Assembly: GCA_965207895.1 (NCBI GenBank) | Contig: CBDBNN010000001.1 | Location: forward strand, 182,312 to 246,311 | DNA length: 64,000 bases | DNA from: Dehalococcoidia bacterium | GTDB lineage: Bacteria > Chloroflexota > Dehalococcoidia > UBA6926 | Direction: 5' to 3' | Part shown: positions 17,820-46,748 of the stretch, piece after piece | How the letters are laid out: every line of letters begins with the position of its first letter | Numbering within the stretch: position 1 is the stretch's first letter | Notes under the pieces: generated by a model | The model's database searches: none | What the model saw: the letters and a program-made list of their open reading frames with translations, nothing else | Told to the model about the DNA's origin: nothing | Made by a program: the position numbers and the translations under genes

Positions 17820-19396
17820 TTTTTGACGGTAGACAGAACCGAGCCGTTCAGGGCCATCTCCTCGGCGTTTCTCCCTCCTACCGGTCCATCCTGAGGCATG
17901 GGGATGGTGTACCGGAGGAGGGCGTTGTCGGGCATGACGACGATCTCCTTGACGAAAGACTCGATGAAGGCCCTGCGCTCGGTCAGTTCGCTCTCCTTCA
18001 GGAACTCGCTCATGTCCTGGGCATAGGTGGCGATGGTTTCCACGTCGTCCAAAACCTCCCTGCGCTGGGAGAGGATGGTCCTGGCCTCGGCCGCCGAGTC
18101 CTCAAGGCGCTGTTGACGCTCCCGGTGCTCCCTGATGCGTTCCGAGGCGTCGGCCATGTCGAGGTCGGTGTTCTCCACCAGGTGCCAGACGCGGCCCAGC
18201 TTGCGCTTGACCTCATCAAGCTCGGCCTCGATGGTCTCCAGCCGTTTGCGCTGCTCCGCTGCCACCCCGTCCATCTCCTCGTCCACGATCTTGACCAGTT
18301 CGGTGATGTTGGACTCGGTGAGGACGTTCTCCCGTATCCTCTCCACCACCATCTCCTCGAAGCGTCGTGCGTTGAGCCTGGGGGTCGTGCAAGCGTTCTT
18401 GCCCCGCTTCATGATGGACTGGCAGACGTAGTAGGCGAACTGGCCGCTCTTGGCGTCCTGGCCTGAGAGCGCCCTGTTGCAGGACTTGCACCTGACCAGC
18501 CCGCTGAGCAGGTAGGAGCTTCCCACCCTGCGAGGGTGCGTCCTCTTCGGCGCGCGGGAGCGCATGAGCCGCTTGACGCGGTTGAATTGGGCCTTGGAGA
18601 CGACGGCGGGGAACGCCTTCTCTATGCGTACGGGGTCGGACTTGACCTTCCCTGTAGTGCCCCAGAGCAGCGTGCCCGTGTAGACCTCGTTTCTGAGGAT
18701 GAAGTGGACGCCGTTCTTGGACCAGAGCTTGCCGGTGGCGCTGGCGATGCCCTCTGAGTTGAGTGTGCGGGTGATTTCGGTCATCCCGGTGGCCGACTCG
18801 GCCATGTCGAAGATGCGCTTGACGACGGGAGCAGTGTCAGGGTCGATCTCCAGTGTGGGCCGCTTCTTGGCTCCGTCCTGCACCATGACGCGGTTGTAGC
18901 CGTAGGGCGTCCTGCTGGCGACCCAGAAGCCTCTGGAAGCGGCCTCCCGCATCCCACGGCGAACCTCTTCCGCAAGATTTTCCGAGTAAAACTCATCGAC
19001 GGACTCGATGATGCCCTCAAGGAGCCTGCCTGTGGCGGTGTCGTCGGCCTGCTCGGTGATGGAGACGACGCGGACGCCCTTTCGCCTGAGCATGGACTTG
19101 AAGGCGACGGCGTGCTCGCGCTTTCTGGTGAATCTACTAAATTTCCAGACAAGGATTTCTCTAAACGGGGCCTCGGGCTTGGCGGCCTCGTCGATCATCT
19201 TGCGGAACTCCGGGCGGTCGGCGACGCGCCCGCTCTCGGCCTCGTCCACGTACTCGCGGACGACCACGTAGTCGTTCTTATGGGCGTATTCCCTGAGCGC
19301 CCGCAGCTGTGCGGCCACGGACAGGTCCACGTCCTGTCTGTCGCTGGAGACCCTGGCGTAGAGGGCCACGGGGGTGTAGTCGCTTCTATTGTTCAT
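17762..19396 (-). CDS. Large serine recombinase (resolvase/invertase-type integrase)
   Basis: ALYARVSSDRQD with the catalytic Ser, a recombinase domain, a zinc ribbon (CKSCNRALSG...YYVC) and a coiled-coil tail. The start is taken at the ATG at 19396, which follows AGGAGGAGG. The 3' end overlaps tRNA-Val by about 58 nt. Confidence 0.85.
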   Translation of the reverse strand: MNNRSDYTPVALYARVSSDRQDVDLSVAAQLRALREYAHKNDYVVVREYVDEAESGRVADRPEFRKMIDEAAKPEAPFREILVWKFSRFTRKREHAVAFKSMLRRKGVRVVSITEQADDTATGRLLEGIIESVDEFYSENLAEEVRRGMREAASRGFWVASRTPYGYNRVMVQDGAKKRPTLEIDPDTAPVVKRIFDMAESATGMTEITRTLNSEGIASATGKLWSKNGVHFILRNEVYTGTLLWGTTGKVKSDPVRIEKAFPAVVSKAQFNRVKRLMRSRAPKRTHPRRVGSSYLLSGLVRCKSCNRALSGQDAKSGQFAYYVCQSIMKRGKNACTTPRLNARRFEEMVVERIRENVLTESNITELVKIVDEEMDGVAAEQRKRLETIEAELDEVKRKLGRVWHLVENTDLDMADASERIREHRERQQRLEDSAAEARTILSQRREVLDDVETIATYAQDMSEFLKESELTERRAFIESFVKEIVVMPDNALLRYTIPMPQDGPVGGRNAEEMALNGSVLSTVKNGGRYRTRTCDLFRVKEAL

Positions 19397-19440
19397 CTGT
19401 GAGTCCTCCTCCTGTTTCCTGTCGTTCCCGTGGGCCACTA

Positions 19441-19800
19441 CTAGCCTGCAACACCCGGCATCGTCGTCATCGAACCCGTGTCTTCCCCAAGCGCGCTGAC
19501 CATTTCACGCGGAAGGATGCCCTCGATCTGTTCAGCCTCGGAACGCTCGGCGTGGTAGAGGTCCCAACGGAGTTGCAGGTTCATCCAAAAGCCGGGCGAA
19601 GTGCCGAAGAACCTAGAGAGCCTCAGGGCGGTGCTTGGCGTGACCCCCCGCTTCCCTCGGACGACTTCGTTGACCCTCTGATAGGGCACGTGAATGGCAT
19701 TGGACAGGTCGCGCTGAGTCATTCCGAGGGGCAGCAGGAACTCCGTCAGAAGCATCTCGCCCGGATGCGTAGGCTCTCGATCGGTGGGAATGCGTACCAT
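19441..19800 (-). CDS. higA: HigA-type antitoxin (HTH, XRE-like)
   Basis: MVRIPTDREPTHPGEMLLTEFLLPLGMTQRDLSNAIHVPYQRVNEVVRGKRGVTPSTALRLSRFFGTSPGFWMNLQ is the HigA/VapI signature. Starts 14 nt after the higB stop. Confidence 0.75.
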   Translation of the reverse strand: MVRIPTDREPTHPGEMLLTEFLLPLGMTQRDLSNAIHVPYQRVNEVVRGKRGVTPSTALRLSRFFGTSPGFWMNLQLRWDLYHAERSEAEQIEGILPREMVSALGEDTGSMTTMPGVAG

Positions 19801-19814
19801 GCTCATTCTCCTCT

Positions 19815-20108
19815 TCAGTGATAGTCGGTGATTTCGACGTCGGCGGGTCCGGCAGGTGTCCACGTGAAGCAGATTCGATACCTGTCGTTGACGCGAATAC
19901 TGTGTTGCCCGCTTCGATCTCCGGCCAGCCGTTCCAGGCGGTTGCCGGGAGGTATTCTGAGGTCTCCCAGAACGGAGGCGGAATCGATCTGGTCAAGCTT
20001 TCGATGAGCCACTCCCCATATCGGCATGGGACATGCCCGCAGGGCCGCTTGAGTGGATTGCCCGTTGAAGATGTCCTCTGTACCGCCGTCTCTGAATGAG
20101 ACAATCAT
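19815..20108 (-). CDS. higB: HigB toxin (RelE/ParE superfamily)
   Basis: MIVSFRDGGTEDIFNG...HRKLDQIDSA...NRLERLAGDRSGQHSIRVNDRYRICF is the HigB killer-protein pattern. Confidence 0.75.
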   Translation of the reverse strand: MIVSFRDGGTEDIFNGQSTQAALRACPMPIWGVAHRKLDQIDSASVLGDLRIPPGNRLERLAGDRSGQHSIRVNDRYRICFTWTPAGPADVEITDYH

Positions 20109-20589
20109 AAGTACATAATAGCACGGCTTTCGTGCTATGCCAAGATGCTAGCTTCACGCGGCCATCTCCAACGAGTCTGCCGGGGACAAGGTTGGGCGGG
20201 ACGTTCACCGCCTGCCCTCGCCGTCATCCTCTGAGTGAGCCGCGTTCCTGCGCATGTGGGCGCGGACGGCGACCTTGGCCAGGATGCGCAGCCCCTTGCG
20301 TATCGTCCTCCGCTGCTGAGGAGTATAGGACTCCATCGGCCTGTCGGAGGATGACTCGGGAGCATCCCTCCCCAGCCTCTTCTTTTGCCGGTTCCTCGTA
20401 TCTTCTCTATTGGTGTCTTTCATGTTGCCTAATCTCAGCGGCGGTTCGTTGGGCCGCTGGCCTCTCGTTACAGGTGTATTGGGTGGCCGCCGGGCACGGA
20501 CGGATGGGTGCGAGCGCCCGGCGGCGTTGTGGTGTCCTACCCCGCCGCGCCGCCGATGCGCCGGTTAGGGCGCCGGCGGGGGGTGCCGG

Positions 20590-20880
20590 CTAGCTCCTGA
20601 AGTGGGTCATCCGTAGCTCCTCCCCCAGGAGGATCGGAAGGCATCCGATGCGGTTGGCGAAGATGACCAAGGTGAGCATGGAGCCTCCGCTGGGCGCCCA
20701 GCCCTTGAGCCACCTTCGCAGCAGCTTGTAGTCGATGCCGGTGACCCTGCACAGGCCGCGCCAGGAGAGGCCGCTGGCCTCCTTGAGGCGCACGAGCCGC
20801 TGGGGGAAGTCCTCGGGCATGTCGGCGCCCTGAAGGGGCTCCATCTCGCTCCATCCGTCGATGTGATCGATGTTGGTCAT
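20590..20880 (-). CDS. Small HTH DNA-binding protein (possible excisionase/regulator)
   Basis: The internal ATG at 20880 gives a 96-aa protein with an HTH-like segment LVRLKEASGLSWRGLCRVTGIDYKLLRRWL. The N-terminal extension in the track ORF is low-complexity. Confidence 0.45.
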   Translation of the reverse strand: MTNIDHIDGWSEMEPLQGADMPEDFPQRLVRLKEASGLSWRGLCRVTGIDYKLLRRWLKGWAPSGGSMLTLVIFANRIGCLPILLGEELRMTHFRS

Positions 20881-21202
20881 GTCTATCCTCCATGTCGTAA
20901 AGCTTTGGGTTGTTGTTCCCAAGGCCATGTGCATCCGGCGGCGGATGCGACCGGAGGGCGGTCGCTCCCCACGCGCCGACTTCGACATGGGACCGGGTCT
21001 GTCTGTATCGACCCCGGCGGGCCGGTTCCGGGAGGTGATCACCGAAGTGAGCCGTCTCCCAGGGCCGCCGCGTCGAGCCGGACGGCGCTCCGTCCTCCGC
21101 TCCTCCGGGGGCCTCTTGCTATATCGTTATCCGGTGAACGCATCGGCTTTCCATCTCCTATCGGGTATTGAGCGGGAGTTTTCGCGACGCTCCCTGCGTC
21201 GT

Positions 21203-22864
21203 TCATTTCGCTTCCGTCGGCAGGGACTGGGGCGGCTCCCAGGCGGCGTCCGGGGTGCGCCAGGCGCGTCCCAGCGGTCCCAGGGAGTCGATGGCTTCTT
21301 TGTGGGAGACCCACAGGGGGACCGTGACCCGGCTGGCCTGCATCCGCTCCCGCGCCACGCGCAGGAAGTGGGTGGCGGCGATGTCGTCGTCGAAGACGAT
21401 GAGCACGTCGGGTCTGGCCCCGTGATCGTCCATGGGCCTGTGGGACGAGTAGTAGCGCAGATAGGGGGCGAGGCGCGTCGCCATCGTCGAGGGACGCACG
21501 GCGCGTCGCTCCCACTCCAGGAAGAAGGCCCACGTCTCTTCGCCCCTGCGCAGGACGCCGAAGGCGTCGGGGTAGACGGCGCGCAACCGTTCGTCGTGGC
21601 GGAAGTGGCGGGACGCCCTCCTGGGCGGGTCGAGCTGCGCTATCTCCCATCCCAGGTGCCGGGCCTGGCTCGCAAGCGCGGACAGAAAGACGTGGACGGC
21701 CTCGGTGTGCTCGATGTTCCTGAGAAGCTGGCGGCTCCTGCTGCCGGTGAGGTTGCGCCACTCGAAAGGCCCTTTGGCGTCCTCCGGGGCGACGCTCAAT
21801 CTCCTCCTCGCCGCCGCCACCGAGGTCCTGTCCCTGCGGGCGAGGAGGGCCAGTCCCCGGTCGGTGAGGGCCAGCCGTCCCTCCGCTTCGCGGGGCCTGA
21901 CGACGAGGCTGAAGCCCTCCAGTGGATTGATCAGCTGCGAGGCCCGCTGGGGCGATACTTCCAACAGACCGGCGAGTTCGCCGAGGGCGATCCAGGGCCA
22001 GTCGAATACCAGGTCGAGGGCGCGCTTCTCGGCGGGTCTGAGCGTCACGGGCAGCATGTGGTCGGCCATGTCGGCTACCGTTCCCATGACGGGCAGGTCT
22101 GCGGGGACCGACGCCAGTCCGGGATGCGGCTCCCCCGGAAACGCGCCGCCGGGGTCGGTCCTGTCCAGCGCATAGCGCAGGCTCACGGCTGCGTGGACCT
22201 GGGCCGGAGTCCAGATCGGGGCGTCTACGTCGGCCATGACCGTCTCGCGTTCGACGGCCAGGAGGGACGGAACGTCTGTGGTCGAGAGCATCCTGCGGGC
22301 GTGCCTGAGACGGACGGCGTCCGTCGTGAGGACGAGGACGACTCCGGGCATGGGTTCGTCCTTCAGTCGCCAGAGGCGCTGGGCGAAGACCGAGCGGTCG
22401 GCGGTGGGTCCCTGCCTCACGATGCCGACGGTCCTGCCGTCGGGAAGTTCTATACCCGCGTCCAGCTTGGATGAGCGGTACCAGCGGAAACGCAGGGGGT
22501 AGGCAACGTCGGAAGCGAGAGATGCGACGTGGTATATGGAAGCCAGGGCGTCCATGCGCTCCATCAGGCTTCGCCGCCACTCGGCGGAGACGGGGTGTGT
22601 ACGCACCAGGTCGTCAAGCGACATCCCGTCCCCATCTGCAAGCCTGCGCAGCCCCGCCCCGGTGAGGTGGAACCTCCGGGAGGGTGGAAAGGGATCGACG
22701 GCGTGGAGCACGGAGTCGCAGAGGCCGTCTGCCTGAAGTCTCTCCACGGCCTCGTGGACCGCGCCCTTGGACCGGCCCGTGACCGGGACCATCTCCCGGC
22801 GATTGAGGTAGGGCATGTCGGCCAGGATGCGGATGATCTGAGCTTCCAGTCCCGCGGGTCTCAT
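21203..22864 (-). CDS. Replication-relaxation (Replic_Relax) family protein, tandem two-module form
   Basis: The C-terminal half (HTEAVHVFL...RPDAFGVLRRGEETWAFFLEWERRA) matches the Replic_Relax pattern and the N-terminal half repeats it more weakly. GAGGAGG RBS. The start overlaps the T4CP stop (ATGA). Confidence 0.65.
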   Translation of the reverse strand: MRPAGLEAQIIRILADMPYLNRREMVPVTGRSKGAVHEAVERLQADGLCDSVLHAVDPFPPSRRFHLTGAGLRRLADGDGMSLDDLVRTHPVSAEWRRSLMERMDALASIYHVASLASDVAYPLRFRWYRSSKLDAGIELPDGRTVGIVRQGPTADRSVFAQRLWRLKDEPMPGVVLVLTTDAVRLRHARRMLSTTDVPSLLAVERETVMADVDAPIWTPAQVHAAVSLRYALDRTDPGGAFPGEPHPGLASVPADLPVMGTVADMADHMLPVTLRPAEKRALDLVFDWPWIALGELAGLLEVSPQRASQLINPLEGFSLVVRPREAEGRLALTDRGLALLARRDRTSVAAARRRLSVAPEDAKGPFEWRNLTGSRSRQLLRNIEHTEAVHVFLSALASQARHLGWEIAQLDPPRRASRHFRHDERLRAVYPDAFGVLRRGEETWAFFLEWERRAVRPSTMATRLAPYLRYYSSHRPMDDHGARPDVLIVFDDDIAATHFLRVARERMQASRVTVPLWVSHKEAIDSLGPLGRAWRTPDAAWEPPQSLPTEAK

Positions 22865-25394
22865 TCTCCGACCTCCTCGTCCTCTTCGTCGGTGTGGTTC
22901 TCGGTCGCCTGCTCGTCGTTCTCCTCCCGTTCGGCCTGCTCCAATGCCTCGACGCCTTTGTGAAATTCGTCCACCTTCCCGTGGCCCTCGGCGTCGGCGT
23001 AGTCTCCCTGGCGGGCCGAGACGGTGTAGCCTTGCGTAGCTGCACGTATGCGGTCGGCGACCGATGGGTCTCCTTCCTCAGGCTTGCGCACCTCCATCGA
23101 GAAGGCGGGCATCCGCTCGGTGCCCACGGTGGCGCGGACGTAGCAGTGGTGCACGGGCAGGGACACGACGTCGTCCTCGGACACCCGGTCCTTGCCAAGC
23201 TCCCACACCAGGGTCCTGGCGTCTGAGCCGGCCACCTGGAAGACGGCGAGGCAGCCGACGTTTGCGAGGATGGTGTCCCGCATGGTGCGGGAGAGGTCGT
23301 CCAGCTTGGCCAGGCTCTGTGTCGCCAGGATGAAGGACGCTCCGAACTTCCCAAGCTCCGACAACATCGACTCGTAGTCCACGCCGGGCATGGACTGCAT
23401 CTCGTCCACGACGACCAGCGCGCCGCGACGTTCCCTGAGAGATAGACTTCCCTGCTCCCGTATCACGGCGTCCACCAGGTTCAGGAGCGACGCGCCCACC
23501 AGGGCGGCCACGTCCCTGCCCACCGTTCCCTGGGAGGTGGAGACCAGCAGCACGCCGCCGTCGTGGATGGTCCTTCTCAGGTCGATGGTGGAGCGGCGCT
23601 GTCCCAGGATGGCCCTGGCCCGCTTGGACGATGCGTAGTAGGAGAGACGGGTCTGGACGGGGGCCAGGGCCTCCGCCTTGTACTGGCGGCCCCACTTGCC
23701 GAAGTCCCTGGCCCACCACTCCAGCAGGTAGGGGTCGGAGACCCTCTTGCGCACCTGCTTGGCGAACTCATCGTCCGAGAGCAGCTTCAGGCCGTCGAGG
23801 ATGGTGTACTGCTGTTCGGCCTCCATCTGCTCGTTGGCCTCGTGCAGCGTCTTGACGGTCTGTTCCAGGATCGACTGCATCCTCGGCCCCCACTGGTCCC
23901 AGAGGCCCTTGGCCACCCGCACCACCGAGTCGGCGGTGCGGTCCCGGTCTGCGAATACGCGGGTGTCCAGCAGATTGACGCCGGGGGAACGGCTCGCGTC
24001 CGACAGGTCTATCAGCCTCACCCTGTCGGCTATCTCCTCGGGGACGTGTTCGAGGATGCCCGCCACCAGGTCGGTGTGGGGGTCGATGACGACGATGGCG
24101 TCTTCGTCCCTGCCCGCCGCCTTCTCCCGCATCTTGTGGGCGACCACGTGGTGCATCAGCGTGGACTTGCCCATGCGGGTGCGGGCCACGTAGAGGTGGT
24201 GACGGCGCAGCAGGTCGTCGGGGAATCTGATCTCCCTCTTGGTACCCGCCGTGGTGTCGCCCACCAGCGCGCCGCCCCTGACTCCCTTCGCCGACGGGCT
24301 GAGCGCCCGTGCGCCGGACCGCTCCACCAACGGCGTCTCGTTCCCCGCTCCCGGCGGGTGCCAGAGGCAGGCGGCCTCCCGGACTCCCAACACGCTGCGC
24401 CTGCCGAACAGGCCGGGGCCTGTGGGATGCAGGTTCGTCCGGGGTCGGGAGCGACGGGCCTTACCTTGCTCACCTTGAACCTCGCCCCTGCCGGGTTGTC
24501 GAAGTGCCGGTAGGCGGCGGCAACCCTCCTCATGAGCTCCTCGGCCCGCTCGCGCCCCGTGTCGTCCGGCATGATCGCCGTGACCCGTATCTCGGCGTCG
24601 AAGGCGATGCGGGAGACCTTCTCCCTGATGAGCAGGGGGTCTTCGACCCGGTTCCTCGCCTTCTTGAAGCGGTGCCATGCCCAGCCACCGATGCCAAGCC
24701 CCAGGGCCGTTCCGATGCCAAGCAGCACCGTCTTCCACGTCTCGCCGTCCTGCACCCACAGGTAGCCCTGGAGGGCTGCGAGAGCGCCGACGCCGAGGAC
24801 GGCCATGGTCACCCCGTCCATCTGGAGGGGCTTGGTTTGGTAGGTGTAGGACGGCTCCCGCTGCTCCTGGCCGGGCCGCTTGTGGGCCTTCTCCATGTGG
24901 TGCTGGGACCAGTCGGGGCCGAGGGAGTTCAGCTTGAGTTGAGCCACCACGCGCTCCCCCTCGTAGAGGGACGACAGCGCGCCCATGAGGGCAATCAGAG
25001 GGTCGGAGCCGGGGTCGAGCAGGTCGTCGTCGCGGAAGGTGCGCAGGGGGACATACTCGGGGCCGTCGGCCCTGAGCGTCATCGACCATGCCTGCTCCCC
25101 CTCCCTTAGCCACAGCGGGTCTTCCCAGGGATGCACCTCCTGTATGCGGGCCTGGGGATAGTGGGCGGCGATCTGGCCGCGTACCACCCGGTCGTCGATG
25201 CAGCGGGCCATCAGCGTCACGCCGTCCATGTCCCCGGCAAGCTCCAGGGAGAAGGGCTCAGGCACCGCGATTGACTGGAGGAGGTTCTCCACGCCCAGCA
25301 ACGTCCGCTCGCCCGTCCTCGGCGGCGTCACCGCAAGCAGCGCCGGGGTCTTGTCGTCGCTTCCAAATAGTTTGCGTATCGGGTTCTGTTTCAT
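22861..25394 (-). CDS. Type IV secretion coupling protein (VirD4/TraG/TraD-like), apparently frameshifted near 24.3-24.4 kb
   Basis: The N-terminal part (25394 down to about 24400: two TM helices and an all-alpha region) and the C-terminal part (about 24300 down to 22861: Walker A ARTRMGKST, VVVDEMQS, ATQSLAKLDDL TraG-D_C-like) lie in different frames. GGGAGGAG RBS before 25394. Confidence 0.6.
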
Positions 25395-25409
25395 TTCTGT
25401 TACTCCTCC

Positions 25410-34309: not shown

Positions 34310-34438
34310 CGGCTTCGGGCTTCTCACAACCCATCACAACACGCAGGGGTCGCTCTCTCCGAGGGCGGCCCCTACTTCTTTGCCCGAAAGCGGGCGTAAC
34401 GGATTCAAGGCAACACACAGGCACGAAGGAGGTGCGAA

Positions 34439-36781: not shown

Positions 36782-37039
36782 ATGAACCTCGGAGACTTCA
36801 TGGACACCTATCGCGACGCCGTCGCCCAGCGGGTGGTGGCGTCCTACCCGCCGCTGTACCGGCCCCCGCATCAAGTGCGGGACAGGCTCTCGGAGAACGG
36901 CGGCGAGTTGCCCCGCCTGCTCAGGAATCCCTGGGGGCGCAGGCCGACGCCATCAGGGGCGCGGACCTCTCCCTACAGGCCCACCCGGGGCGCCGTCCGC
37001 GGTGCGGTAGACGTGACATGCCATGGTCAGCGTGATTGA
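36782..37039 (+). CDS. Small hypothetical protein
   Basis: CAGGAGGAC RBS 6 nt before the ATG. 85 aa. Confidence 0.4.
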   Translation: MNLGDFMDTYRDAVAQRVVASYPPLYRPPHQVRDRLSENGGELPRLLRNPWGRRPTPSGARTSPYRPTRGAVRGAVDVTCHGQRD

Positions 37040-37685: not shown

Positions 37686-40600
37686 CTAGTCGTCGTCTAT
37701 GATCGTCATGGTTCCCACGGCGTCGGGCGGGTAGAGGGTCCCGGGCAGGTACGCCTCCACCACGAAGTACTCGTCCGGCTCCTCATCGTCGTCGTACTCC
37801 AGCCACACCTCCGCCGTCAGCTCCGTCACCCCCGGCGCGAACACCAGCTCACCCTCCGTGTACTGATAGTCGGTCATGTGCGCCCGGTCGTCCAGCAGGT
37901 GGTACGCAGGCGCGGTGTTCCATCTGATCCTGATCTCCTCGGTGGACGCCTCGGACAGCCGCACCCGGAACTCCAGCACGTCGCCCTCCACCGCCGACGC
38001 GGCCTCGACGGTGACGGTTATCTCCACCTCCGGCGCAGCATCGTCGTTGTCGGCCACGCCGACCGTGGCCGCGCCCTGGGACGAGGACACCGTGTAGCCG
38101 CTGCCCGCGTTCACCGTGGCCGTCACCGACCCGTCGGTCTCGTCTGCGTCGTCGTCGGTGGTGCCAACGGTGAGGGTGACGCTGCCCGTGGTGGGGACGG
38201 TCACCGTGCGCTGGCCCGTGGTCGCGCCGTAGTCGCCGCTCTGGGACACCGTGACGCTCACCGCCAGGTTGGCCGCCGGGGCCGGGCTGGCGGTCACCGT
38301 GAAGATGGCGTCCCCGCCCTCGGTAACCCCGCTGCCCGCGGTGACGCTCACCACCGGCGTGGGGGCGTCGTCGTTGTCGGACACCGCCACCGTGGCCGCG
38401 CCCTGGGTCGAGGACACCGTGTAGCCGCTGCCGGCGTTCACCGTTGCCGTCACCGAGCCGTCGGTCTCGTCAGTAGTGTCGTCCGTGGTGCCGATGGTGA
38501 GGGTGACGCTGCCCGTGGTGGGTATCGTCACCGTCCGCTGGCCCGTGGTCGCGCCGTAGTCGCCGCTCTGCGATACCGTCACGCTCACCGCCAGGTTGGA
38601 CGCCGGGGCCGGGCTGGCCGTCACCGTGAAGGTGGCGTCCCCGCCCTCGGTCACCCCGCTGCCAGCGGTGACGCTCACCACCGGCGTGGGGGCGTCGTCG
38701 TTGTCGGCCACGCCGACCGTGGCCGCGCCCTGGGTCGAGGACACCGTGTAGCCGCTGCCCGCGTTCACCGTGGCCGTCACCGACCCGTCGGTCTCGTCTG
38801 CGTCGTCGTCGGTGGTGCCCACGGTGAGGGTGACGCTGCCCGTGGTGGGTATCGTCACCGTGCGCCGGCCCGTGGTCGCGCCGTAGTCGCCGCTCTGGGA
38901 CACCGTGACGCTCACGTCCAGGTTGGCCGTAGGGGCCGGGCTGGCCGTCACCGTGAAGGTGGCGTCGCCGCCCTCGGTGATGCCGCTGCCAGCAGTGACG
39001 CTTACCTCAGGCGTGGGGGCGGCGTCGTTGTCGGCCACGGCCACCGTGGCCGCGCCCTGGGACGAGGACACCGTGTAGCCGCTGCCCGCGTTCACCGTGG
39101 CCGTCACCGAGCCGTCGGTCTCGTCAGTAGTATCGTCCGTGGTGCCGACGGTGAGGGTGACGCTGCCCGTGGTGGGTATCGTCACCGTGCGCTTCCCCGT
39201 GGCCGCGCCGTAGTCGCCGCTCTGGGACACCGTGACGCTCACGTCCAGGTTGGACGCCGGGGCCGGGCTGGCCGTCACCGTGAAGGTGGCGTCGCCGCCC
39301 TCGGTGATGCCGCTGCCCGCAGTGACGCTTACCTCAGGCGTGGGCGGCGGCGGCGTCTGCGCTGCCGCCGCCTCCAGGGCCGTCAGCTCGGTCACCACCT
39401 CGTCCCACACCGGGCTGCTGTGCCGGTTCGCCATCTCCTGCGCCTCGGACGCCGTCATCGGGCCGCCCGTGACGCCGGCGCCGTCGTGCTCGCCGAAGGC
39501 CAGCAGCACCCGGTTCCAGCGGTTCACGTGGGCCGTGCCGTGCTGCGTCTGCGACGCCAGCTCCCTGACCTTCGCGATCACGTCCGGGTCCACCGTGTAG
39601 CCCGTCTGCTCCTCAACGACCGGGTCGTCGTTGTCTGCGACGCCGACCGTGGCAGCCCCCTGGGACGAGGACACCGTGTAGCCGCTGCCCGCGTTCACCG
39701 TCAGCGTCACCGAGCCGTCGGTCTCGTCCACGTCGTCGTCCGTGGTGGTTATGGTCACCGTGGCGCTGCCCGAAGTCGGGATGGTCACCGTGCGCTGGCC
39801 CGTGGTCGCGCCGTAGTCGCCGCTCTGCGAGACCGTGAGGCTCACCGCCAGGTTGGACGCCGGGGCCGGGCTGGCCGTCACCGTGAAGGTGACGTCGCCG
39901 CCCTCGGTGATGCCGCCGCCGCCGGTGACGCTCACCACCGGCGTGGAGGCGTCGTCGTTGTCGGACACGGCCACCGTGGCCGCGCCCTGGGACGAGGACA
40001 CCGTGTAGCCGCTGCCGGCGTTCACCGTGGCCGTCACCGAGCCGTCGGTTTCGTCAGTACTGTCGTCCGTGGTGCCCACGGTGATGGTGACGCTGCCCGT
40101 GGTGGGTATGGTCACCGTCCGCTGGCCCGTGGTCGCGCCGTAGTCGCCGCTCTGCGACACCGTGACGCTCACGTCGAGATTCGCGGTCGGGGCCGGGCTG
40201 GCCGTCACCGTGAAGACGGCGTCGCCGCCCTCGGTCACCCCGCTTCCAGCGGTGACGCTCACCTCGGGCGTGGGCGGCGGCGGCGTCTGTGCCGCCGCCG
40301 CTTCCAGGGCCGTCAGCTCGACGACCACCAGGTCCCACACCGGGCTGCTGTGATTGTCGGCCATGTCCTGCGCCTCGGCCGCCGTCATCGGGCCGCCGGT
40401 GACGCCGGTCCCGTCGTGCTCGCCGAAGGCCAGCAGCACCCGGTTCCAGCGGTTCACGTGGGCCGCGCCGTGCTGGGTCTGCGACGCCAGCTCCTTGACC
40501 CTGGCGATCGTTCCCTGGTTGACCGTGTAGCCGCCGTCGTCGTCGGACACGACCACGACGGCCGTCCCCTGGGACGAGGACACCCGGTAGTCGAGGTTGG

Positions 40601-43600
40601 CGCTGGCGTCGACGGTGACCGTGACCGATCCGTCGGGCTCGTCCACCTCGTCGTTGGTGGTGGCCACCGTCAGCGTGGCGTAGCCCGCTGCCGGGATGGT
40701 CACCGTCCGATGTTCCATGGATATCCCGGAGTCGTCGCTCTGCGACACCGTGACGCTCACGTCCAGGTCCGCAGCCGGGGCCGGGTTGGCGCTGACCGTG
40801 AAGGTCGCGTCCCCGCCCTCGGTCACGTTGCCGTCGGCGGTCACGCTGATCAGCGGCACGGACGTGTTGGGCGCGGGCGTCTCGAAGTCCACCGTGAAGG
40901 TCTTCGGCGTCGCGCCGGCGGCCAGGGTCCGCACGGTGATCTTGTCCAGCTGGGTCGTCCCATGAAGGACGGAGACCACGTAGTGCGACTGCGGATTAAG
41001 GCCGGTGAGCTGGTGCTCGGTGGCGGTGGTCGTGACTTCCGTCAGGACCGGGACGCCCGTGAAGCTCTCGTGCCAGACGACCAGGTAGGACGCGCCGTCC
41101 CCCTGCGGCTTCCAGGCGACGGTCGCCGTGGTGTCGGAGACGCGCTTGAGCTGCACCGGCGGAGGCGGCGGGAGGTCGTTGTTGGCGATATAGACCGAGG
41201 CGTAGCTCCTGAACCTGTTCAGCCGGTAGCCCTCGCCGAACTGCACCGTCGCGCCGAGCATCCCGTTGGAGCCCCAACCGGTGTCGTCGACGGTGGGGAT
41301 GGTGAACGAGACGCTGCCGCCGGTGGGCACGTTGACCGTGCGCTCGCCCAGGTGCTGGGCGGCGACCACGGAGCCGGGGCCGGCCACGCCCACCCTGACG
41401 TCCAGCGGCGCGTCGGGCGCGGGGTTCACGGTGACCGTGTAGACCGCGTCCTCGCCCTCGGTGATGGTGCCGCCGGCGGCGCTGATCGACACCTCGGGCA
41501 CCCGCTCCACGATCACCGACGTGGGCTCCGCCTCCACGGGCGAGCCCGCCGCAAGCGTGGTGAAGCGGATCACCGGGCTGGCGGTGCTCAGCTGCGTCGC
41601 GCCGTGGTCCTGGTAGTAGACCACCGCCCGGTACTCGGTGTCCGGCTCCAGGTGGCGGATGTTCCAGGCCGGGTCGTTGGGCTCGGCCCCGAACCAGGCC
41701 TCGTCGGCCGGGACGCCGGGGAAGGGCGAGGTGGTGGACCAGTAGCGCACCTCGTAGCCCTCGGCGCCGACCACCTGCGGCCAGCTCAGGTCGATGCCCG
41801 TGTCGGACAGGTTGGCGTAGGTCAAATCGCCCACGCGCTCCACCACCGGGTCGGGCAGGTCGCCCAGCAGCCGCTGGCAGCCCACGCAGGAGCCCAGCGT
41901 GCGGTGGAAGCTGAAGCTGTCGGTGCGCACCGTCTTCGGCGGCGTCTCCGTGGAGATCTGGTTGTCGCTGCGCTCGTACAGCTTGTAGCCCTCGACCTGG
42001 AAGGTCACGTTGCCGACCACGTTGGCGCCGACGTGGATGTCGACCTGGACCGGCGTGCGGCCGACCGTGACCGAGCCGGCGCTGACGGCAGAGTCAGTTC
42101 TGAAGGTGTGCAGGTGCGAGGCGGCGGGGCTGGTGAACCAGACCCGGTGGGACCGGAAGTACTCCGACGTGCCGCTCCGCAACAGCGGCTTGGCGAAGTC
42201 GGCGCTGATGGAGAAGCGCTTGTCCTGGTCCGCCGGCGGGTCGTTCTTCGTCCGCACCCAGAAGTAGTGCGCCTTGCGCCCCGTGTTCAGCGAGGCCGGG
42301 AAGGCCAGATTGAGCCCGCCGTCCTCGATGGACGTCCAGGTGGTCCCGTCGTCGATGGAGAACTCCAGGGTCTGCTCCCACTCGTCGTCGTCCCTGATGA
42401 TGAGCGGCACCTGCACCTCGGGGTAGTCGAAGCCTTCCACCTGGTACAGCACGCCATTTTCATAGAAGTTGTGGCCGACGGCGTGGGGCCGGTGGATCAG
42501 GAACGTCCCGTGGTCGAAGGCGTCGCTGTCCTGGCCCGCGGCGAGGCTCACCGGACGCCACTTGTTGGCGTCGCTCTCGTAGACGGACTGCGACGAGAAG
42601 GGGCAGCCGTCGTGCCGGTCCAGCAGCGGGCCGGCGGTGCTGCCGTAGCCGAAATGAATCCCATCCCGGCCAAGCCCTTCGACGATGGGGTCGCCCAGGT
42701 TGTAGGGGCTTCTACTCCCGGTGTGGCACATCAGCCGGTCCCGGTCCGGTTTGCCCGGCCCGATGTAGCCGCCGTGGTGGCTGAGCGGCTCACCCACCTG
42801 GCTGGCGACGTAGAAGTGCCGGCGCTCGTGGGGGTCCACCGCCTGCCACTGGTAGGTCACCGCCGGGCCGCCCTCCGTCAGCGTGATGGTGGGCGGCGGG
42901 TCGTGCCTGTTGTAGTTGGCGATCACCCAGCCCGTGTCGCAGTCGTTGCCCGAGATCGTGCCCGCGCAGGTGCGGAACTGCACGAAGGCGTCGGCGGCCC
43001 CCAGGTTCAGGCCGATCTTGAGCGCCTCGGAGTGGGTGCTCCAGGAGACGGCGGGGTTGGGGTAGAGCGACCAGGAACTGTGGCCGTCGCCGATGCTCCA
43101 GCCCTCGGGCAGGCGCAGGCCCCGCAGGCGCTCGGAGTTCGACGCGGTGGCGCGAAGGGTGTACGTGCTGTTGGGCTGCACGGACGCGTCGTATACATAC
43201 ACCCAGTAGGTGGTGTTCGGCTCCAGCCGCAGCCCCGAACCGTCGTTGCCCTGGTAGGTGAAGGTGAAGGTCCGGTCGGCGCTGCCCACCGGCATGGAGG
43301 GGCGCGCCAGATCGGCCAGGACGTCGGCGGCGGTACTGCCCGGCGAGCCGCCGGAGCCGGCCCAGATCTGTACCCTCAGATCACGGGCGGCGTCGGAGTC
43401 GCCGATCTCGGCAAACTCGACGTCGACGCTGTTGAGGCGGTAGTGGCCGCCGTTCTTGCCCGTCGTGAACGACTGCGCGCGGTCACGTACGGTACTGGCA
43501 GCCGTCACGGTCAACGCCGCGCCGTCCGCCTGGCCCAGGTTGCTCATCACCGCCGGCTCACCGGGCGGCGCGTTCACCGGCGTGGGCTCCACCCGGAACA

Positions 43601-46445
43601 GGGGCGAGATGCCGTAGAAGGCGTGGTCCTGGGTGCTGGCGATGGTGTTGTAGCTGATGGGGCCGGTGTCCGCGTCGGTGGTCGAGAACCGTCCGCGCCG
43701 GGCGTTGCTGGCGCCCAGAGGGTTCGCCTCCTTCGCACCGTCGGTGCGGGTGCCGGTCCACGGCCAGTCGTTCGAGGTGCTCCTCTCGCCGCTCTCGAAG
43801 CGCCGGTCCGCCATCGCCCAGTTCTCCCAGGTGTCGGACCAGAAGCCGGCGTTGTTCGCCGCGACCCGCTCGCCGTTCAGCCACCAGACCTCCGCGTCCG
43901 TGTGCCCGGCGTTGTTGGGGTTGGTCCGGGTGTGGTCCCGGGCGTCCACCGCGGCGGTGGAGCCCACCACCCGGAAGTGATCGGCGTAGCGCCGGACGGC
44001 GGCGTGCCCGTCGCGGGCCGCCTCCCGCACGTGGGCGTCGTAGACGCCGATGTCGGCGGCGGTGGCGTCGCGGTGGTCTTCGGTCATGAACAGCAGCCGG
44101 AACGTCTCGCCCGCGCCCAGACCGAGCGGCTTCAGCGGCCAGTCCAGGGGCACGGTGTAGGAACCGTCCGCGTGGGGCAGCAGCCGGCCGTTGACTCCCA
44201 TCGACAGAGTGGAGCCGCCGACCAGGGTGATCCAGTTGCCGCCCCCCTGCGCGCGGATGCGAGCGTCGTTGTTGATGCTCCAGCCGGGCGCGGCGCCCTC
44301 GTCCTCGGAGTTGCTCTGCGTGAACTTCACCTGGCTGTTGCCTTCCGTGAGTCCGGCTGCGTCCAGCACGACCCAGTAGCGGGTGTCCGCCTCGAGCGCG
44401 ACGCCCGGGTGCGTGAAGCGGTACGTGCCGGCCTGCCGGTTCACGAAGGCGGGATTGGTCAGGGTCCCCACGACCGTGCCGGGAGCCCCGTTGGCACCTT
44501 TGTGGACGGTGACCGTCAGCTTGGAGCCGAAGTCCTCGGTGGACCGCCTGAAGGCCACGTCCACGCTGGTCAGGGTGTACCCCGAGGGGTTGCCGCCGGT
44601 GTCGAAACCCTGCGCCAGGTCCACGTGCAGGCCCTGCACCAGGCCGCTCGACTGGCCGGTGTTCTTCACCAGCGCCGGGTCGTCGTCCCGCACCCGGACC
44701 GTCGCCGTCCCCAGCGACGTGGCCAGGTCGTAGTCCGACCCGTCCACCAGCGTCACCGTGACCGAGCCGTGGGCTTCGTCCACGTCGTCGTTGGTGGTGG
44801 CGATCTCCAGCGTCGCCGACCCGCTGGCCGGAATGGTGACGCTGGTGGGCAGGGTCCCGTACCCGAAGTCCCCGGTCGTGGTCACCGTGACGCTCACCGG
44901 CAGGTCTGCCGGGGGCGCCGGGACCGCCGTCAGCGTGAAGCTGGCGCTGACGCCCTCGGTGACGGCGCCGCCGCCAAGGATGCTCACCCGCGACGGCCGC
45001 AGCTTGTTGCTCACCTGCACGGAGAAGCCGTTGGACGTCGCGTGCGGGTCCGCGCCGCCGCCGACATTGGTGCCGAGGCTGGAGGCGTCGAAGGCGGCGT
45101 TCGAGCCGAGCGCGATGGTGTAGGTCTCCGTGCTCTCCGTCGCGCCGTCGACCACCGGCGTCAGCTCCAGCGTCGCCGTCCGCGCGCCCGCGCCCGAGAA
45201 GCGCACCGTCGGCGTCGCCGTGCTCGTGCCCGAAAGCGTCACGCCGGCGTTGAGGCTCGTGCCGGTCTTCTTCGCAAGGCTCCAGTCGGAGGTGGTCACG
45301 CCCGTGCCGCCGATCGACAGCGGCACGTCGATGGTCTCGCCCGCAATCAGCGCGCGGCCCAAGGTCACCGTGAACTCCACCGTCCCGCCCTCCGACACCG
45401 CGCCGCTGCCGACGCGGGCGAGGGTGACGACCGTGGGGTCGTCGTCGTGGAGGGTGTAGGTGAAGCTATTGGCGCTGGTGTCGATGGAAACCCCGGCGGG
45501 GAGCGGATTGTCCGGATCCTCAGAGAGAGTCACCGAGATGACTTCGTTGGGCACGTCCCCGACACTGCCGACAGCAAAGCCACTAATGCCCCTCTCCGTG
45601 CTACCTGCTGAGACTGTTAGATCTGCGCAACCGTTTTCATCCAGTGTCAAAACTGTGTTTTGCAAATGCTCAAACTCGAGGCCAAGGGTTGGGCGGTTGC
45701 TTGTGATACATACTCTGAAGTAGGTAGCAGTTGCCAGGGCCGATGAGACTTCCACCCGAAAACTTCCAGCAGCTGCACCTGCACTTAATTCTTGTGTCAT
45801 CTGCGGGGTAGATAGTTCTACAGACATTGTTGCGGTCTTCACCACGCCACCGAGGCTGATTTTCGGGGTTGGCGTGTTGGTGAACCATGAGCCTGTCATA
45901 GCATGCGCTCTATACACCAAGCCGTTACCGATGCTCCAGCCGGCGAGGGCTCCGCTATCTTCGTTGTTCGAATTCGTGGCGCGAATACCCGACGTGGCGA
46001 GGTTACGGCTGAGATCCAACACAAGGAAGTATGTGGTGTTCGCCGACAGGTCTATGCCGGTGCTCGTGAAGGTCAGCGTCTGGTCCGAGCTGGAGACGGG
46101 AAAGCTGGCGGGCTTGGTCAGGGTCCCCAGCGAGCTGCCCGGAGACCCGCTGGATTCGGTGTGGATGGTGGCGGTGAGGTCCGAAGAGCTGAAGCTGCTG
46201 TGGATAATGCCAAATTCCACTCCGACGCTGGTCAGGCTGTAGCCCGCGGCGTTGCTGCCGGTGGTGAACGCCACGGCGTAATCGTTGCCAAGAGCTTGAT
46301 TGAATCCGTCTGCCTGACCGAGGTTGCTGACGAAGGTCTGCGTCGCCTGCTGCGCAGAGGCTGTTTCAGACCCTCCAGACAGCAGCACGAACAGCGCCGC
46401 CGCCAGCAGGGTCAACGTGAGGAAGGTTCTGGCGGGGCGCCTCAT
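37686..46445 (-). CDS. Giant secreted adhesin-like protein (2919 aa): signal peptide, three SNLGQxDG-type domains, FN3 domains and about 8 Calx-beta-like domains
   Basis: The ATG at 46445 gives MRRPARTFLTLTLLAAALFVLLSGGSETASA. FN3-like segments (YEVRYWS..., VAWKPQGDGASYLVVW...). Repeated about 109-aa units TEGGDATFTVTASPAPxxNLxVSVTVSQSGDYGA...TDDxxDETDGSVTATV. The C-terminal domain DYQYTEGELVFAPGVTELTAEVWLEYDDDEEPDEYFVVEAYL is a Calx-beta hallmark. Confidence 0.85.
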   Translation of the reverse strand: MRRPARTFLTLTLLAAALFVLLSGGSETASAQQATQTFVSNLGQADGFNQALGNDYAVAFTTGSNAAGYSLTSVGVEFGIIHSSFSSSDLTATIHTESSGSPGSSLGTLTKPASFPVSSSDQTLTFTSTGIDLSANTTYFLVLDLSRNLATSGIRATNSNNEDSGALAGWSIGNGLVYRAHAMTGSWFTNTPTPKISLGGVVKTATMSVELSTPQMTQELSAGAAAGSFRVEVSSALATATYFRVCITSNRPTLGLEFEHLQNTVLTLDENGCADLTVSAGSTERGISGFAVGSVGDVPNEVISVTLSEDPDNPLPAGVSIDTSANSFTYTLHDDDPTVVTLARVGSGAVSEGGTVEFTVTLGRALIAGETIDVPLSIGGTGVTTSDWSLAKKTGTSLNAGVTLSGTSTATPTVRFSGAGARTATLELTPVVDGATESTETYTIALGSNAAFDASSLGTNVGGGADPHATSNGFSVQVSNKLRPSRVSILGGGAVTEGVSASFTLTAVPAPPADLPVSVTVTTTGDFGYGTLPTSVTIPASGSATLEIATTNDDVDEAHGSVTVTLVDGSDYDLATSLGTATVRVRDDDPALVKNTGQSSGLVQGLHVDLAQGFDTGGNPSGYTLTSVDVAFRRSTEDFGSKLTVTVHKGANGAPGTVVGTLTNPAFVNRQAGTYRFTHPGVALEADTRYWVVLDAAGLTEGNSQVKFTQSNSEDEGAAPGWSINNDARIRAQGGGNWITLVGGSTLSMGVNGRLLPHADGSYTVPLDWPLKPLGLGAGETFRLLFMTEDHRDATAADIGVYDAHVREAARDGHAAVRRYADHFRVVGSTAAVDARDHTRTNPNNAGHTDAEVWWLNGERVAANNAGFWSDTWENWAMADRRFESGERSTSNDWPWTGTRTDGAKEANPLGASNARRGRFSTTDADTGPISYNTIASTQDHAFYGISPLFRVEPTPVNAPPGEPAVMSNLGQADGAALTVTAASTVRDRAQSFTTGKNGGHYRLNSVDVEFAEIGDSDAARDLRVQIWAGSGGSPGSTAADVLADLARPSMPVGSADRTFTFTYQGNDGSGLRLEPNTTYWVYVYDASVQPNSTYTLRATASNSERLRGLRLPEGWSIGDGHSSWSLYPNPAVSWSTHSEALKIGLNLGAADAFVQFRTCAGTISGNDCDTGWVIANYNRHDPPPTITLTEGGPAVTYQWQAVDPHERRHFYVASQVGEPLSHHGGYIGPGKPDRDRLMCHTGSRSPYNLGDPIVEGLGRDGIHFGYGSTAGPLLDRHDGCPFSSQSVYESDANKWRPVSLAAGQDSDAFDHGTFLIHRPHAVGHNFYENGVLYQVEGFDYPEVQVPLIIRDDDEWEQTLEFSIDDGTTWTSIEDGGLNLAFPASLNTGRKAHYFWVRTKNDPPADQDKRFSISADFAKPLLRSGTSEYFRSHRVWFTSPAASHLHTFRTDSAVSAGSVTVGRTPVQVDIHVGANVVGNVTFQVEGYKLYERSDNQISTETPPKTVRTDSFSFHRTLGSCVGCQRLLGDLPDPVVERVGDLTYANLSDTGIDLSWPQVVGAEGYEVRYWSTTSPFPGVPADEAWFGAEPNDPAWNIRHLEPDTEYRAVVYYQDHGATQLSTASPVIRFTTLAAGSPVEAEPTSVIVERVPEVSISAAGGTITEGEDAVYTVTVNPAPDAPLDVRVGVAGPGSVVAAQHLGERTVNVPTGGSVSFTIPTVDDTGWGSNGMLGATVQFGEGYRLNRFRSYASVYIANNDLPPPPPVQLKRVSDTTATVAWKPQGDGASYLVVWHESFTGVPVLTEVTTTATEHQLTGLNPQSHYVVSVLHGTTQLDKITVRTLAAGATPKTFTVDFETPAPNTSVPLISVTADGNVTEGGDATFTVSANPAPAADLDVSVTVSQSDDSGISMEHRTVTIPAAGYATLTVATTNDEVDEPDGSVTVTVDASANLDYRVSSSQGTAVVVVSDDDGGYTVNQGTIARVKELASQTQHGAAHVNRWNRVLLAFGEHDGTGVTGGPMTAAEAQDMADNHSSPVWDLVVVELTALEAAAAQTPPPPTPEVSVTAGSGVTEGGDAVFTVTASPAPTANLDVSVTVSQSGDYGATTGQRTVTIPTTGSVTITVGTTDDSTDETDGSVTATVNAGSGYTVSSSQGAATVAVSDNDDASTPVVSVTGGGGITEGGDVTFTVTASPAPASNLAVSLTVSQSGDYGATTGQRTVTIPTSGSATVTITTTDDDVDETDGSVTLTVNAGSGYTVSSSQGAATVGVADNDDPVVEEQTGYTVDPDVIAKVRELASQTQHGTAHVNRWNRVLLAFGEHDGAGVTGGPMTASEAQEMANRHSSPVWDEVVTELTALEAAAAQTPPPPTPEVSVTAGSGITEGGDATFTVTASPAPASNLDVSVTVSQSGDYGAATGKRTVTIPTTGSVTLTVGTTDDTTDETDGSVTATVNAGSGYTVSSSQGAATVAVADNDAAPTPEVSVTAGSGITEGGDATFTVTASPAPTANLDVSVTVSQSGDYGATTGRRTVTIPTTGSVTLTVGTTDDDADETDGSVTATVNAGSGYTVSSTQGAATVGVADNDDAPTPVVSVTAGSGVTEGGDATFTVTASPAPASNLAVSVTVSQSGDYGATTGQRTVTIPTTGSVTLTIGTTDDTTDETDGSVTATVNAGSGYTVSSTQGAATVAVSDNDDAPTPVVSVTAGSGVTEGGDAIFTVTASPAPAANLAVSVTVSQSGDYGATTGQRTVTVPTTGSVTLTVGTTDDDADETDGSVTATVNAGSGYTVSSSQGAATVGVADNDDAAPEVEITVTVEAASAVEGDVLEFRVRLSEASTEEIRIRWNTAPAYHLLDDRAHMTDYQYTEGELVFAPGVTELTAEVWLEYDDDEEPDEYFVVEAYLPGTLYPPDAVGTMTIIDDD
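38040..40850. repeat. Near-identical tandem coding repeats (about 327-bp unit x6-7) plus a duplicated about 260-bp insert inside the adhesin gene
   Basis: Protein-level repeats are more than 90% identical. The second repeat family (GYTVxPDVIAKVRELASQTQHG.AHVNRWNRVLLAFGEHDG...AAAAQTPPPP) occurs at about 39345-39614 and 40269-40523. Confidence 0.7.
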
Positions 46446-46468
46446 GAGAGAGAACCCCCACGAAATGC

Positions 46469-46478
46469 GGGGGGGGGG
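46469..46478. repeat. Homopolymeric G10 (C10 on the coding strand) 24-33 nt upstream of the adhesin start codon
   Basis: Sequence ...atgcGGGGGGGGGGtgaagc. On the minus strand this reads CCCCCCCCCC-gcatttcgt-GGGGG-ttctctctc-ATG. Confidence 0.6.
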
Positions 46479-46748
46479 TGAAGCTCCGCAGCGCATCAGT
46501 CATGTCGTCGAACCTCCTGTGTCGCCCGACTTATGCCGCGACGCCGTGCGGGCGCTGGATCAGTAGTATTTCTAGCTCATGTCAATATGTGTCGCAAACG
46601 ACCAGCAGATATCATCCGCCAATCTGGGGTTCGTTGTCAATGGGGTCCGGGTTGGATTGGGGACGGAAAGGGAGGGCGGAGCGCAGCAACATACCGTGTG
46701 GGGACTGGCGGACAAGGGCGACTTGGCGAGACCCCTCGGAGGCAGTCG

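Follow-up and report, generated by a model that had tools for sequence, protein, structure and literature searches.

Here we describe a block of DNA that most likely represents an integrative and conjugative element (ICE) of a large Dehalococcoidia family. It occupies positions 17820–47623 (~29.8 kb) of a 64,000-nucleotide (nt) stretch, hereafter the window, of contig CBDBNN010000001.1 from a Dehalococcoidia bacterium. The element is of a self-transmissible type and is inserted at the end of a tRNA-Val gene; in the present copy its coupling-protein gene is disrupted. Its distinguishing features are a monoderm-type type IV secretion system (T4SS) with pilins, a MOB_C relaxase and a serine integrase that targets the CCA end of tRNA genes and whose gene (int) contains the attachment (att) site attP. 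We did not find the family described in the literature searched, and every component is of a known kind. A preliminary description of this DNA had proposed an integrated conjugative element with a Gram-positive/monoderm-type T4SS, a Chloroflexota host and a giant surface protein as cargo; that core reading holds, with changes to the right boundary, the relaxase and the coupling protein.

The composition of the window is not uniform and switches at the island. Windowed profiles, one of the checks proposed earlier, gave a GC content of 0.66–0.73 across ~20–46 kb versus 0.58–0.60 up to ~17 kb and after ~47 kb, and the tetranucleotide correlation passed from host-like to island-like over the same span. 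For long open reading frames (ORFs), GC at third codon positions (GC3) was 0.84–0.92 within the island versus 0.56–0.72 outside. The GC content is therefore elevated relative to both flanks, as had been described.

Both ends of the element are defined by att sites. On the left, the junction with the tRNA-Val gene was exact, confirming the bound assigned previously: tRNA-Val(cac) (17743–17819, plus strand; ARAGORN; Rfam tRNA 69 bits) is the integration target and stays intact. The attL site (17812–17841, plus strand) consists of the core GCCCACCA at 17812–17819, which is the tRNA 3′ end, one T and a 21-nt P′ arm, TTTTGACGGTAGACAGAACCG, at 17821–17841. The att-like duplication expected of such an insertion was found at attR (47592–47623, plus strand), where a P arm (47592–47612), an inverted copy of P′ with one mismatch, is followed by TAG and by an 8-bp repeat of the tRNA-Val end, GCCCACCA, at 47616–47623. 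Within the window, the arm TTTTGACGGTAG[A/G]CAGAACCG occurs only at 17821–17841 on the plus strand and 47592–47612 on the minus strand, and the chance expectation for such a pair was 0 in 100 shuffles. This unique inverted arm, together with the repeated core, sets the extent of the element at 17820–47623, and two further genes (46749–47521) thus fall inside it. At the right end, only 47572–47625 (~52 nt) is conserved with the right-type ends of two related loci, L045 and L069; the sequence of relatives reached 10 kb towards their far ends.

The integrase gene (17762–19438, minus strand) encodes a large serine recombinase of 558 amino acids (aa) with Resolvase (118 bits), Recombinase (75 bits) and zinc-ribbon (Zn_ribbon_recom, 47 bits) Pfam domains, and its PDB relatives are SPbeta SprA/YokA, TP901-1 Int and TnpX. 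The reconstructed attP, which contains CGGTTCTGCCTACCGTCAAAATAGGCCCACCATTTTTGACGGTAGACAGAACCG, is a quasi-palindrome of 54 bp in which two inverted 21-nt arms surround the 12-nt TAGGCCCACCAT with CC at its centre; the reconstructed attB is the 3′ end of tRNA-Val and contains GTCCTGTATCGCCCACCAGAATCGGCAAG. Inverted arms around a short core with a central dinucleotide are the geometry expected of large serine integrases. The last ~17 int codons cross attL into the tRNA gene, so attP sits inside the 3′ end of int and the C terminus of the integrase is altered upon integration, from ...VKNGGPILTVGRTVFEMRLGSL in the reconstructed excised form to ...VKNGGRYRTRTCDLFRVKEAL in the integrated form. Integration swaps the last ~17 residues for codons taken from the antisense strand of tRNA-Val (17762–17843, 47570–47623), and the crossover is predicted at the central CC (17814–17815/47618–47619).

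To place the element in a family, we used VirB4, the T4SS ATPase. Its database relatives exceed 1,495, of which the top 120 share 86–98% identity with it, and a representative-library search returned graded full-length relatives from 64% down to 35% identity. The proposal to look for the same element at other loci and in other genomes was taken up by scanning species-representative genomes, which contained at least 565 VirB4 loci. Conservation is counted here over 81 related loci, and taxonomy refers to the best 80 of the at least 565 loci. These 80 were all in Dehalococcoidia metagenome-assembled genomes (MAGs), many of them complete 2–4.4-Mb chromosomes, often with 2–4 copies per genome. Because of this distribution, and because locus L008 shares the host flank, the host is placed by sequence in the Chloroflexota. 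Ten backbone genes, from that of a 285-aa protein through the T4SS operon, the coupling-protein gene and the relaxase gene to that of a 150-aa protein, were present in 74–81 of the 81 loci; the toxin–antitoxin pair HigBA and the giant gene lie outside this conserved set. The preliminary remark that conjugative elements are sparsely described in Chloroflexi stands for the literature searched, in which we found no paper describing a T4SS-encoding ICE in Dehalococcoidia or Chloroflexota, and fails for sequence databases, where the family is very abundant.

The insertion sites of relatives match the junction seen here. In 13 loci the element begins exactly past the CCA of tRNA-Val (cac or gac), tRNA-Ala (tgc or ggc), tRNA-Ile (gat) or tRNA-Asn; all of these tRNA genes end in CCACCA save that of the tRNA-Asn locus, and several of the loci carry the same arm or a variant. 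In L008, L011, L029, L062 and L065 the P′ arm immediately follows the CCA of a tRNA-Val, -Ala or -Ile gene, and the similarity of L005 and L023 to the window begins precisely at 17812. L029 is 95% identical over 16 kb, yet is located in tRNA-Ile. Near-identical elements at different tRNA genes in different genomes require mobility, and the present copy combines an integrase with an att-delimited chromosomal insertion whose junction recurs at other tRNA genes.

Several arrangements among the relatives depart from single insertions at tRNA genes. Element copies lie no more than 10–40 kb apart in one chromosome in three cases (L045/L062 in OZ244812.1, L039/L053 in OZ240222.1 and L034/L063 in OZ240235.1). 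Just past the integrase region of one element, L045, L069, L074 and L076 show the right-type end of another, and tandem or clustered insertions are suggested. At five loci (L046:20706, L064:21962, L074:20775, L076:20668 and L069:19693) the asymmetric core has the opposite orientation with respect to the arms, with the integrase-side arm joined to GGTGGGCC or the far-side arm joined to CCACCA, and no tRNA gene was detected alongside; they apparently form a sub-family whose core is inverted or whose targets are not tRNA genes. At L004:10651, L005:20194 and L023:19731 an identical integrase-side arm is joined to ...gGCCCACCA after non-tRNA sequence, and the flanks of L005 and L023 are similar; these are possible secondary attB sites.

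The T4SS is encoded by an operon of minus-strand genes, beginning with that of an exported 205-aa protein (31160–31777; 78 of 81 loci) that has an N-terminal transmembrane (TM) segment or signal. This is followed by genes for a VirB6/TrbL-like polytopic membrane protein of 326 aa with ~6–7 TM segments (30176–31156; PF04610 27.2 bits, and TrbL_3 on the homologue in L001) and for a 97-aa VirB2-like protein, pilin 2 (29724–30017; PF18895 T4SS_pilin 49 bits, NCBIfam Mbov_0395 pilin-like 37 bits). Next is a 567-aa membrane protein (27999–29702) with a PrgI/VirB3-like two-TM N-terminal hairpin, a third TM segment and a tandem Ig/fn3-like ectodomain; its PrgI match is below threshold (E 0.12), and blastp linked it to an Embleya 'PrgI family protein' (E 0.004). 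A second VirB2-like protein of 105 aa with two hydrophobic helices, pilin 1 (27685–28002; T4SS_pilin 26.0 bits, cutoff 26.6; TrbC), takes the VirB3 position upstream of VirB4 and was present in all 81 loci. VirB4 itself (25410–27632) has 740 aa and matches three Pfam families (P-loop_TraG, AAA_10 and TraC_F_IV), NCBIfam CD1110 (E 8e-69) and PDB entry 4AG5. The gene list of the preliminary description thus stands for the serine integrase, HigBA, Replic_Relax, coupling, VirB4, pilin-like, VirB6-like and giant repeat proteins, all recognized by Pfam or NCBIfam, with the PrgI-like assignment remaining below threshold.

Typing tentatively places VirB4 nearest to monoderm systems. The best matches of VirB4 were all of this type, namely CD1110 (233 bits, cutoff 325), Mbov_0397 (157 bits), 4AG5 and Streptomyces/Embleya plasmids (34–35% identity), with all NCBIfam scores under the curated cutoffs. 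As for the accessory genes of classes MPF_FA and MPF_FATA, PrgI is sub-threshold, VirB6 is matched by the classical TrbL profile, and no hydrolase or VirB8-like fold was found. AlphaFold2 modelling gave the 567-aa and the 205-aa core protein a mean predicted local distance difference test (pLDDT) score of ~61; residues 213–517 of the former reached 70–90 and matched only generic beta-sandwich (Ig/fn3) structures, and the low-confidence model of the latter gave generic Ig-like matches and was not VirB8-like. A VirB8-like or hydrolase role for either protein was considered and is unsupported by these models. According to a 2025 survey, Gram-positive T4SS classes lack VirB2 homologues (PMC12102498); the present element encodes two VirB2-like proteins, and NCBIfam includes a pilin-like family from mycoplasma ICEs. 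The system is best described as a predicted monoderm-type T4SS, nearest to CD1110, mycoplasma-ICE and actinomycete systems, with pilins and with no recognizable wall hydrolase.

The putative relaxase (21203–22864, minus strand) is a 553-aa protein that combines two winged-helix regions with a nuclease-like Replic_Relax domain (PF13814, 26.2 bits, cutoff 25.3). PF13814 was matched by all 33 relaxase homologues scanned (best E 3e-11), and their alignment revealed invariant residues H386-T387, D412-P-P, P432-D433 and L449-EWERRAVRP. These include D412, P432-D433 and E450-W-E452-R, and a PD...ExE-type motif is invariant. The preliminary description had set a Replic_Relax protein against a canonical MOB relaxase; that distinction was wrong, since the MOB_C relaxase class has PF13814 as its Pfam domain (PMC5357655, table 2) and the protein thus belongs to a canonical class. 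A search for PDB relatives of the relaxase found none. It resembles the MOB_C proteins TraX of pAD1 and MobC of CloDF13 in its Replic_Relax domain, in its conserved PD and acidic motifs, in having a winged helix at the N terminus and in the position of its gene beside that of the coupling protein, but is about twice the usual length and has two winged-helix regions; identity is too low for BLAST to link it to annotated members, and nicking activity is predicted from its sequence. Francia and colleagues reportedly characterized these MOB_C proteins in 2013 as restriction-endonuclease-like relaxases.

The gene for the VirD4-type type IV coupling protein (T4CP; 22861–25394, minus strand) follows. 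Its product scores above the TrwB_AAD_bind cutoff (26.5 bits, cutoff 20.5), yet the gene is frameshifted in the present copy, with the N-terminal part (25394–24444) in one frame and the C-terminal ATPase (24465–22894) in another; the intact T4CP implied by the earlier gene list is therefore split over two frames. In a tblastn search with the intact 856-aa homologue of L001, residues 1–317 matched the first frame and 309–835 the second. Nucleotide alignment located two additional nucleotides near 24430–24445 relative to each of the five closest relatives, inserted one at a time at points 8 nt from each other where the sequence is GC-rich. In 75 of the 81 loci the gene is unbroken. Owing to this frameshift, the present copy, as sequenced, is probably not self-transmissible, and could at best be mobilized in trans by sister copies.

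Beyond the T4SS operon lies a conserved non-coding block (33175–33700, plus strand) that has no coding signal and no Rfam match, and is conserved in 48–64 loci. Alignment and RNAalifold identified an invariant hairpin (33200–33227), ~45-nt direct repeats (about 4–7 among relatives) and 3′ hairpins with compensatory changes, and the block has a strong positive GC skew. We conjecture that it is a candidate origin of transfer (oriT); it could alternatively be an iteron array or a non-coding RNA.

Two other accounts of the element as a whole were weighed. The T4SS may serve adhesion, effector delivery or DNA uptake, as has been proposed for the similar-looking Patescibacteria T4SS or the archaeal Ced system, in which case the block would be a fitness island and not an ICE. 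The set of VirB4, PrgI/VirB3-like, VirB6 and PF18895 proteins does resemble that of Patescibacteria, which mostly lacks a relaxase (PMC12102498), and the products of the element include a giant surface protein and one with an Ig-like ectodomain. However, genes for a T4CP and a MOB_C-type relaxase are linked to the system in 79–81 of 81 loci, beside a serine integrase and att sites, and near-identical elements occupy different tRNA genes across genomes, which makes a non-conjugative role quite improbable. Still more doubtful is an integrated conjugative plasmid or phage-like element. A linear actinomycete plasmid carries the nearest annotated T4SS cluster, and the repeats at 33175–33700 could be the iterons of a replication origin; against this, profile searches of the element genes detected no replication initiator, partition, capsid or terminase gene, the best 80 relatives are all on Mb-scale chromosomal contigs next to tRNA genes, and a plasmid collection contained no match at ≥60% identity.

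Two further alternatives concern the present copy. The right end had been placed at 46527, for an element of ~28.7 kb, on the basis of a partial copy of the tRNA end at ~46510–46527; sequence from 46528 to 47623 would then be host DNA or a separate small insertion. GC content does drop to ~0.60 past 46500, and 12 of 14 positions at 46513–46526 agree with the tRNA end. Yet a search of the window allowing 3 mismatches turned up no further 17-nt tRNA 3′ end, the spot is unconserved in relatives, and long direct repeats are not a product of serine integrases. At 47592–47623, by contrast, the arm and 8-bp core are statistically unique and kept in other elements, and the o133/o124 gene pair beyond 46527 also lies inside related elements. 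We rejected the 46527 end, as no tRNA-end copy is there, and regard this shorter version as scarcely credible. A stronger case can be made that the T4CP frameshift arose in the assembly of a long-read MAG and that the element is fully functional and self-transmissible. The window is apparently from such a MAG, as are its relatives, all other backbone genes are full length relative to those of relatives, and the two closely spaced single-base insertions, in GC-rich sequence, have a form that long-read consensus errors can give. The insertions are nevertheless outside long homopolymers, and in 6 of 81 related loci the T4CP gene is split at other positions, indicating that genuine decay happens in the family. 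We consider an artefact plausible, although somewhat doubtful.

Returning to an ICE with a disrupted coupling-protein gene, a number of points weigh against this interpretation. Should the two extra T4CP bases be assembly errors, which they could be, the copy would be intact, and the Pfam scores of the relaxase and T4CP in this copy barely exceed their thresholds. Conjugative transfer is, for all family members, a prediction from gene content, and the assignment of oriT is conjectural. Profile and model searches of the element proteins recognized no VirB8-like protein, wall hydrolase or directionality factor. Neither an excised circle nor an empty site was found in the collections scanned; a scan of IMG/VR for the attP palindrome gave only two unrelated matches, and JGI metagenome scans with the attP and attR patterns gave zero matches each. 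Finally, in a check element in which the right end of L045 probably pairs with the integrase end of L062 across the origin of OZ244812.1 (~38 kb), ~17 kb of sequence between the ends was unread.

From these components we infer a life cycle. The integrase and a directionality factor would recombine attL with attR at the central CC of the core and release a circle. The MOB_C-type (Replic_Relax) relaxase would nick oriT, for which 33175–33700 is the candidate, and the T4CP would deliver the DNA to a minimal monoderm-type T4SS of VirB4, VirB6/TrbL, the PrgI/VirB3-like protein, two VirB2-like pilins and the small exported protein. In the recipient, any tRNA gene with a ...CCACCA end would be a target at which the integrase inserts the circle. 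HigBA would stabilize the element, with the giant fn3/Calx-beta protein and the o133/o124 pair as presumed cargo. The proposed excision and re-integration steps derive from the anatomy of the att sites and the distribution of insertions.

Comparison with known systems showed partial resemblances. The gene order recurs in an annotated, uncharacterized cluster on a plasmid of Embleya sp. NBC_00896 (NZ_CP108778), which encodes VirB6-like, PrgI-family, VirB4, T4CP and replication-relaxation proteins in the same order (VirB4 35% and T4CP 28% identical). The Embleya cluster is plasmid-borne, has an NlpC/P60 hydrolase and lacks PF18895 pilins, whereas the present element has two pilins, a serine integrase and tRNA integration, and no hydrolase was found in it. 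The MPF_FA and MPF_FATA systems of Firmicutes and Tenericutes share the best VirB4 models (CD1110 and Mbov_0397), a pilin match to a mycoplasma ICE family and the only PDB match, Thermoanaerobacter VirB4. They differ in that the present scores fall under curated family cutoffs, identity to Firmicutes plasmids is 26–28%, and no PrgB-type adhesin, CHAP/lytic transglycosylase or VirB8-like protein was recognized in the present element. For the integration module, the nearest precedent in the literature searched is provided by the ssrA islands of Dehalococcoides mccartyi (DsiB; PMC3146451), which occur in the same class and have a ~540-aa serine recombinase beside attL, a target at the 3′ end of a tRNA-like gene, tandem arrays and variable cargo. 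Those islands, however, target the tmRNA gene with a 20-bp repeat, and have a second small recombinase and no conjugation genes (PMC3146451); the present family has a full T4SS, ordinary tRNA genes as targets and a 6–8-bp core.

The T4SS of Patescibacteria, also known as the Candidate Phyla Radiation (CPR), are similar in their component sets, on which this comparison is based: a monoderm-type VirB4, PrgI/VirB3, a VirB6 matched by the classical profile and PF18895 pilins, with MOB_C the commonest relaxase class (PMC12102498). Patescibacteria are reported to have PF18895 pilins, PrgI, VirB6 and mostly MOB_C relaxases, and are placed as the sister phylum to Chloroflexota (PMC12102498). Their systems are mostly chromosomal, without a relaxase and thought to be non-conjugative (PMC12102498), unlike the present element with its relaxase, T4CP, integrase and att sites. 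A speculative and, in our estimate, unlikely idea is that the family is the conjugative counterpart, as a sister or source lineage, of the chromosomal Patescibacteria T4SS. If so, VirB2-like pilins would belong to an old monoderm T4SS lineage common to Chloroflexota and Patescibacteria, and some monoderm bacteria would conjugate by means of a pilus. Even apart from this, a monoderm-type T4SS with both VirB2-like pilins and a relaxase bears on the question of pilin origin raised for Patescibacteria.

Dehalococcoidia include organohalide respirers, and their route of gene exchange has been unclear. A prolific, multi-copy ICE family with its own T4SS offers a concrete and testable route of horizontal transfer in the class. 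A 2011 study of Dehalococcoidia serine-integrase islands found no conjugation genes (PMC3146451); that the machinery described here could be the missing transfer route for such islands, including dehalogenase islands, is part of the same speculative and, in our estimate, unlikely idea. Large serine integrases directed, as in this family, to the CCA end of several tRNA genes are also rare.

Next to int, a HigB toxin gene (19815–20108; HigB-like_toxin 56 bits) lies upstream of and overlaps an HTH_3 antitoxin gene (19441–19863; 38 bits), both on the minus strand, in the arrangement of a HigBA type II toxin–antitoxin system that was present in only 2 of the 81 loci. Two small conserved minus-strand genes follow, o72 (20205–20423; 41 of 81 loci) and o150 (20590–21042; 75 of 81 loci, with a weak HTH_23 match), which are candidates for an excision directionality factor or regulator. 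Between the T4SS operon and the gene for the 285-aa protein, a divergent intergenic region (31778–32226) contains paired direct repeats, of 25 nt at 32058 and 32125 and of 13 nt (CCRATGACAAAAA) at 32042 and 32098, and is likely to be a promoter/operator. The 285-aa protein (32227–33084, plus strand; 74 of 81 loci) is a cytoplasmic coiled-coil protein with no significant family match.

A regulatory and accessory block of partial conservation (33794–37563) encodes o171 (33794–34309), o167 (34439–34942), a four-HTH regulator (35401–36558, plus strand; Pfam HTH_3 ×4, 95 bits), o85 and o178. A 187-aa minus-strand ORF (35055–35618) with coding-like GC3 overlaps the annotated start of the regulator by ~220 nt; probably either a start is misassigned in one of the two or the 187-aa ORF is not a real gene.

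The largest cargo gene (37686–46496, minus strand) encodes a secreted repeat protein of 2,936 aa, in which a signal peptide, fn3 domains and a C-terminal Calx-beta-like domain (Pfam) were recognized. At 8.8 kb it accounts for about 30% of the element, the share first estimated. The protein has at least 6 tandem 109-aa repeats, corresponding to a 327-nt period in Tandem Repeats Finder, and a search for PDB relatives found none. It is absent from other loci apart from weak repeat-domain matches in L007 and L012, where genes at the same cargo position (L007:15–710 and L012:38–598) have repeat domains that share ~30% identity with its own; recurrent carriage of large surface repeat proteins as cargo may be a trait of the family. 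The accessory cassette near attR, o133 (47120–47521) and o124 (46749–47123; weakly retropepsin-like), both on the minus strand, recurs inside L001, L002 and L012, between the relaxase and integrase genes. PADLOC found no defence genes inside the element.

In the flanking DNA, a tRNA-Met gene (17624–17697; ARAGORN/Rfam) lies to the left of the element, and this and tRNA-Val were the only matches in the Rfam scan. Just outside attR, a low-GC (0.53) region at 47694–49575 carries a gene for a CBASS (cyclic-oligonucleotide-based anti-phage signalling system)-type oligonucleotide cyclase (PADLOC Cyclase 300 bits, Pfam SMODS) that converges on a gene for an 8-TM protein without a family match, and may be a separate small defence islet. 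Further into the host flank (49616–52612) is a gene for a 998-aa protein with AMP-binding, PP-binding and NAD_binding_4 domains, resembling a carboxylic acid reductase or the terminal reductase of a non-ribosomal peptide synthetase (NRPS).

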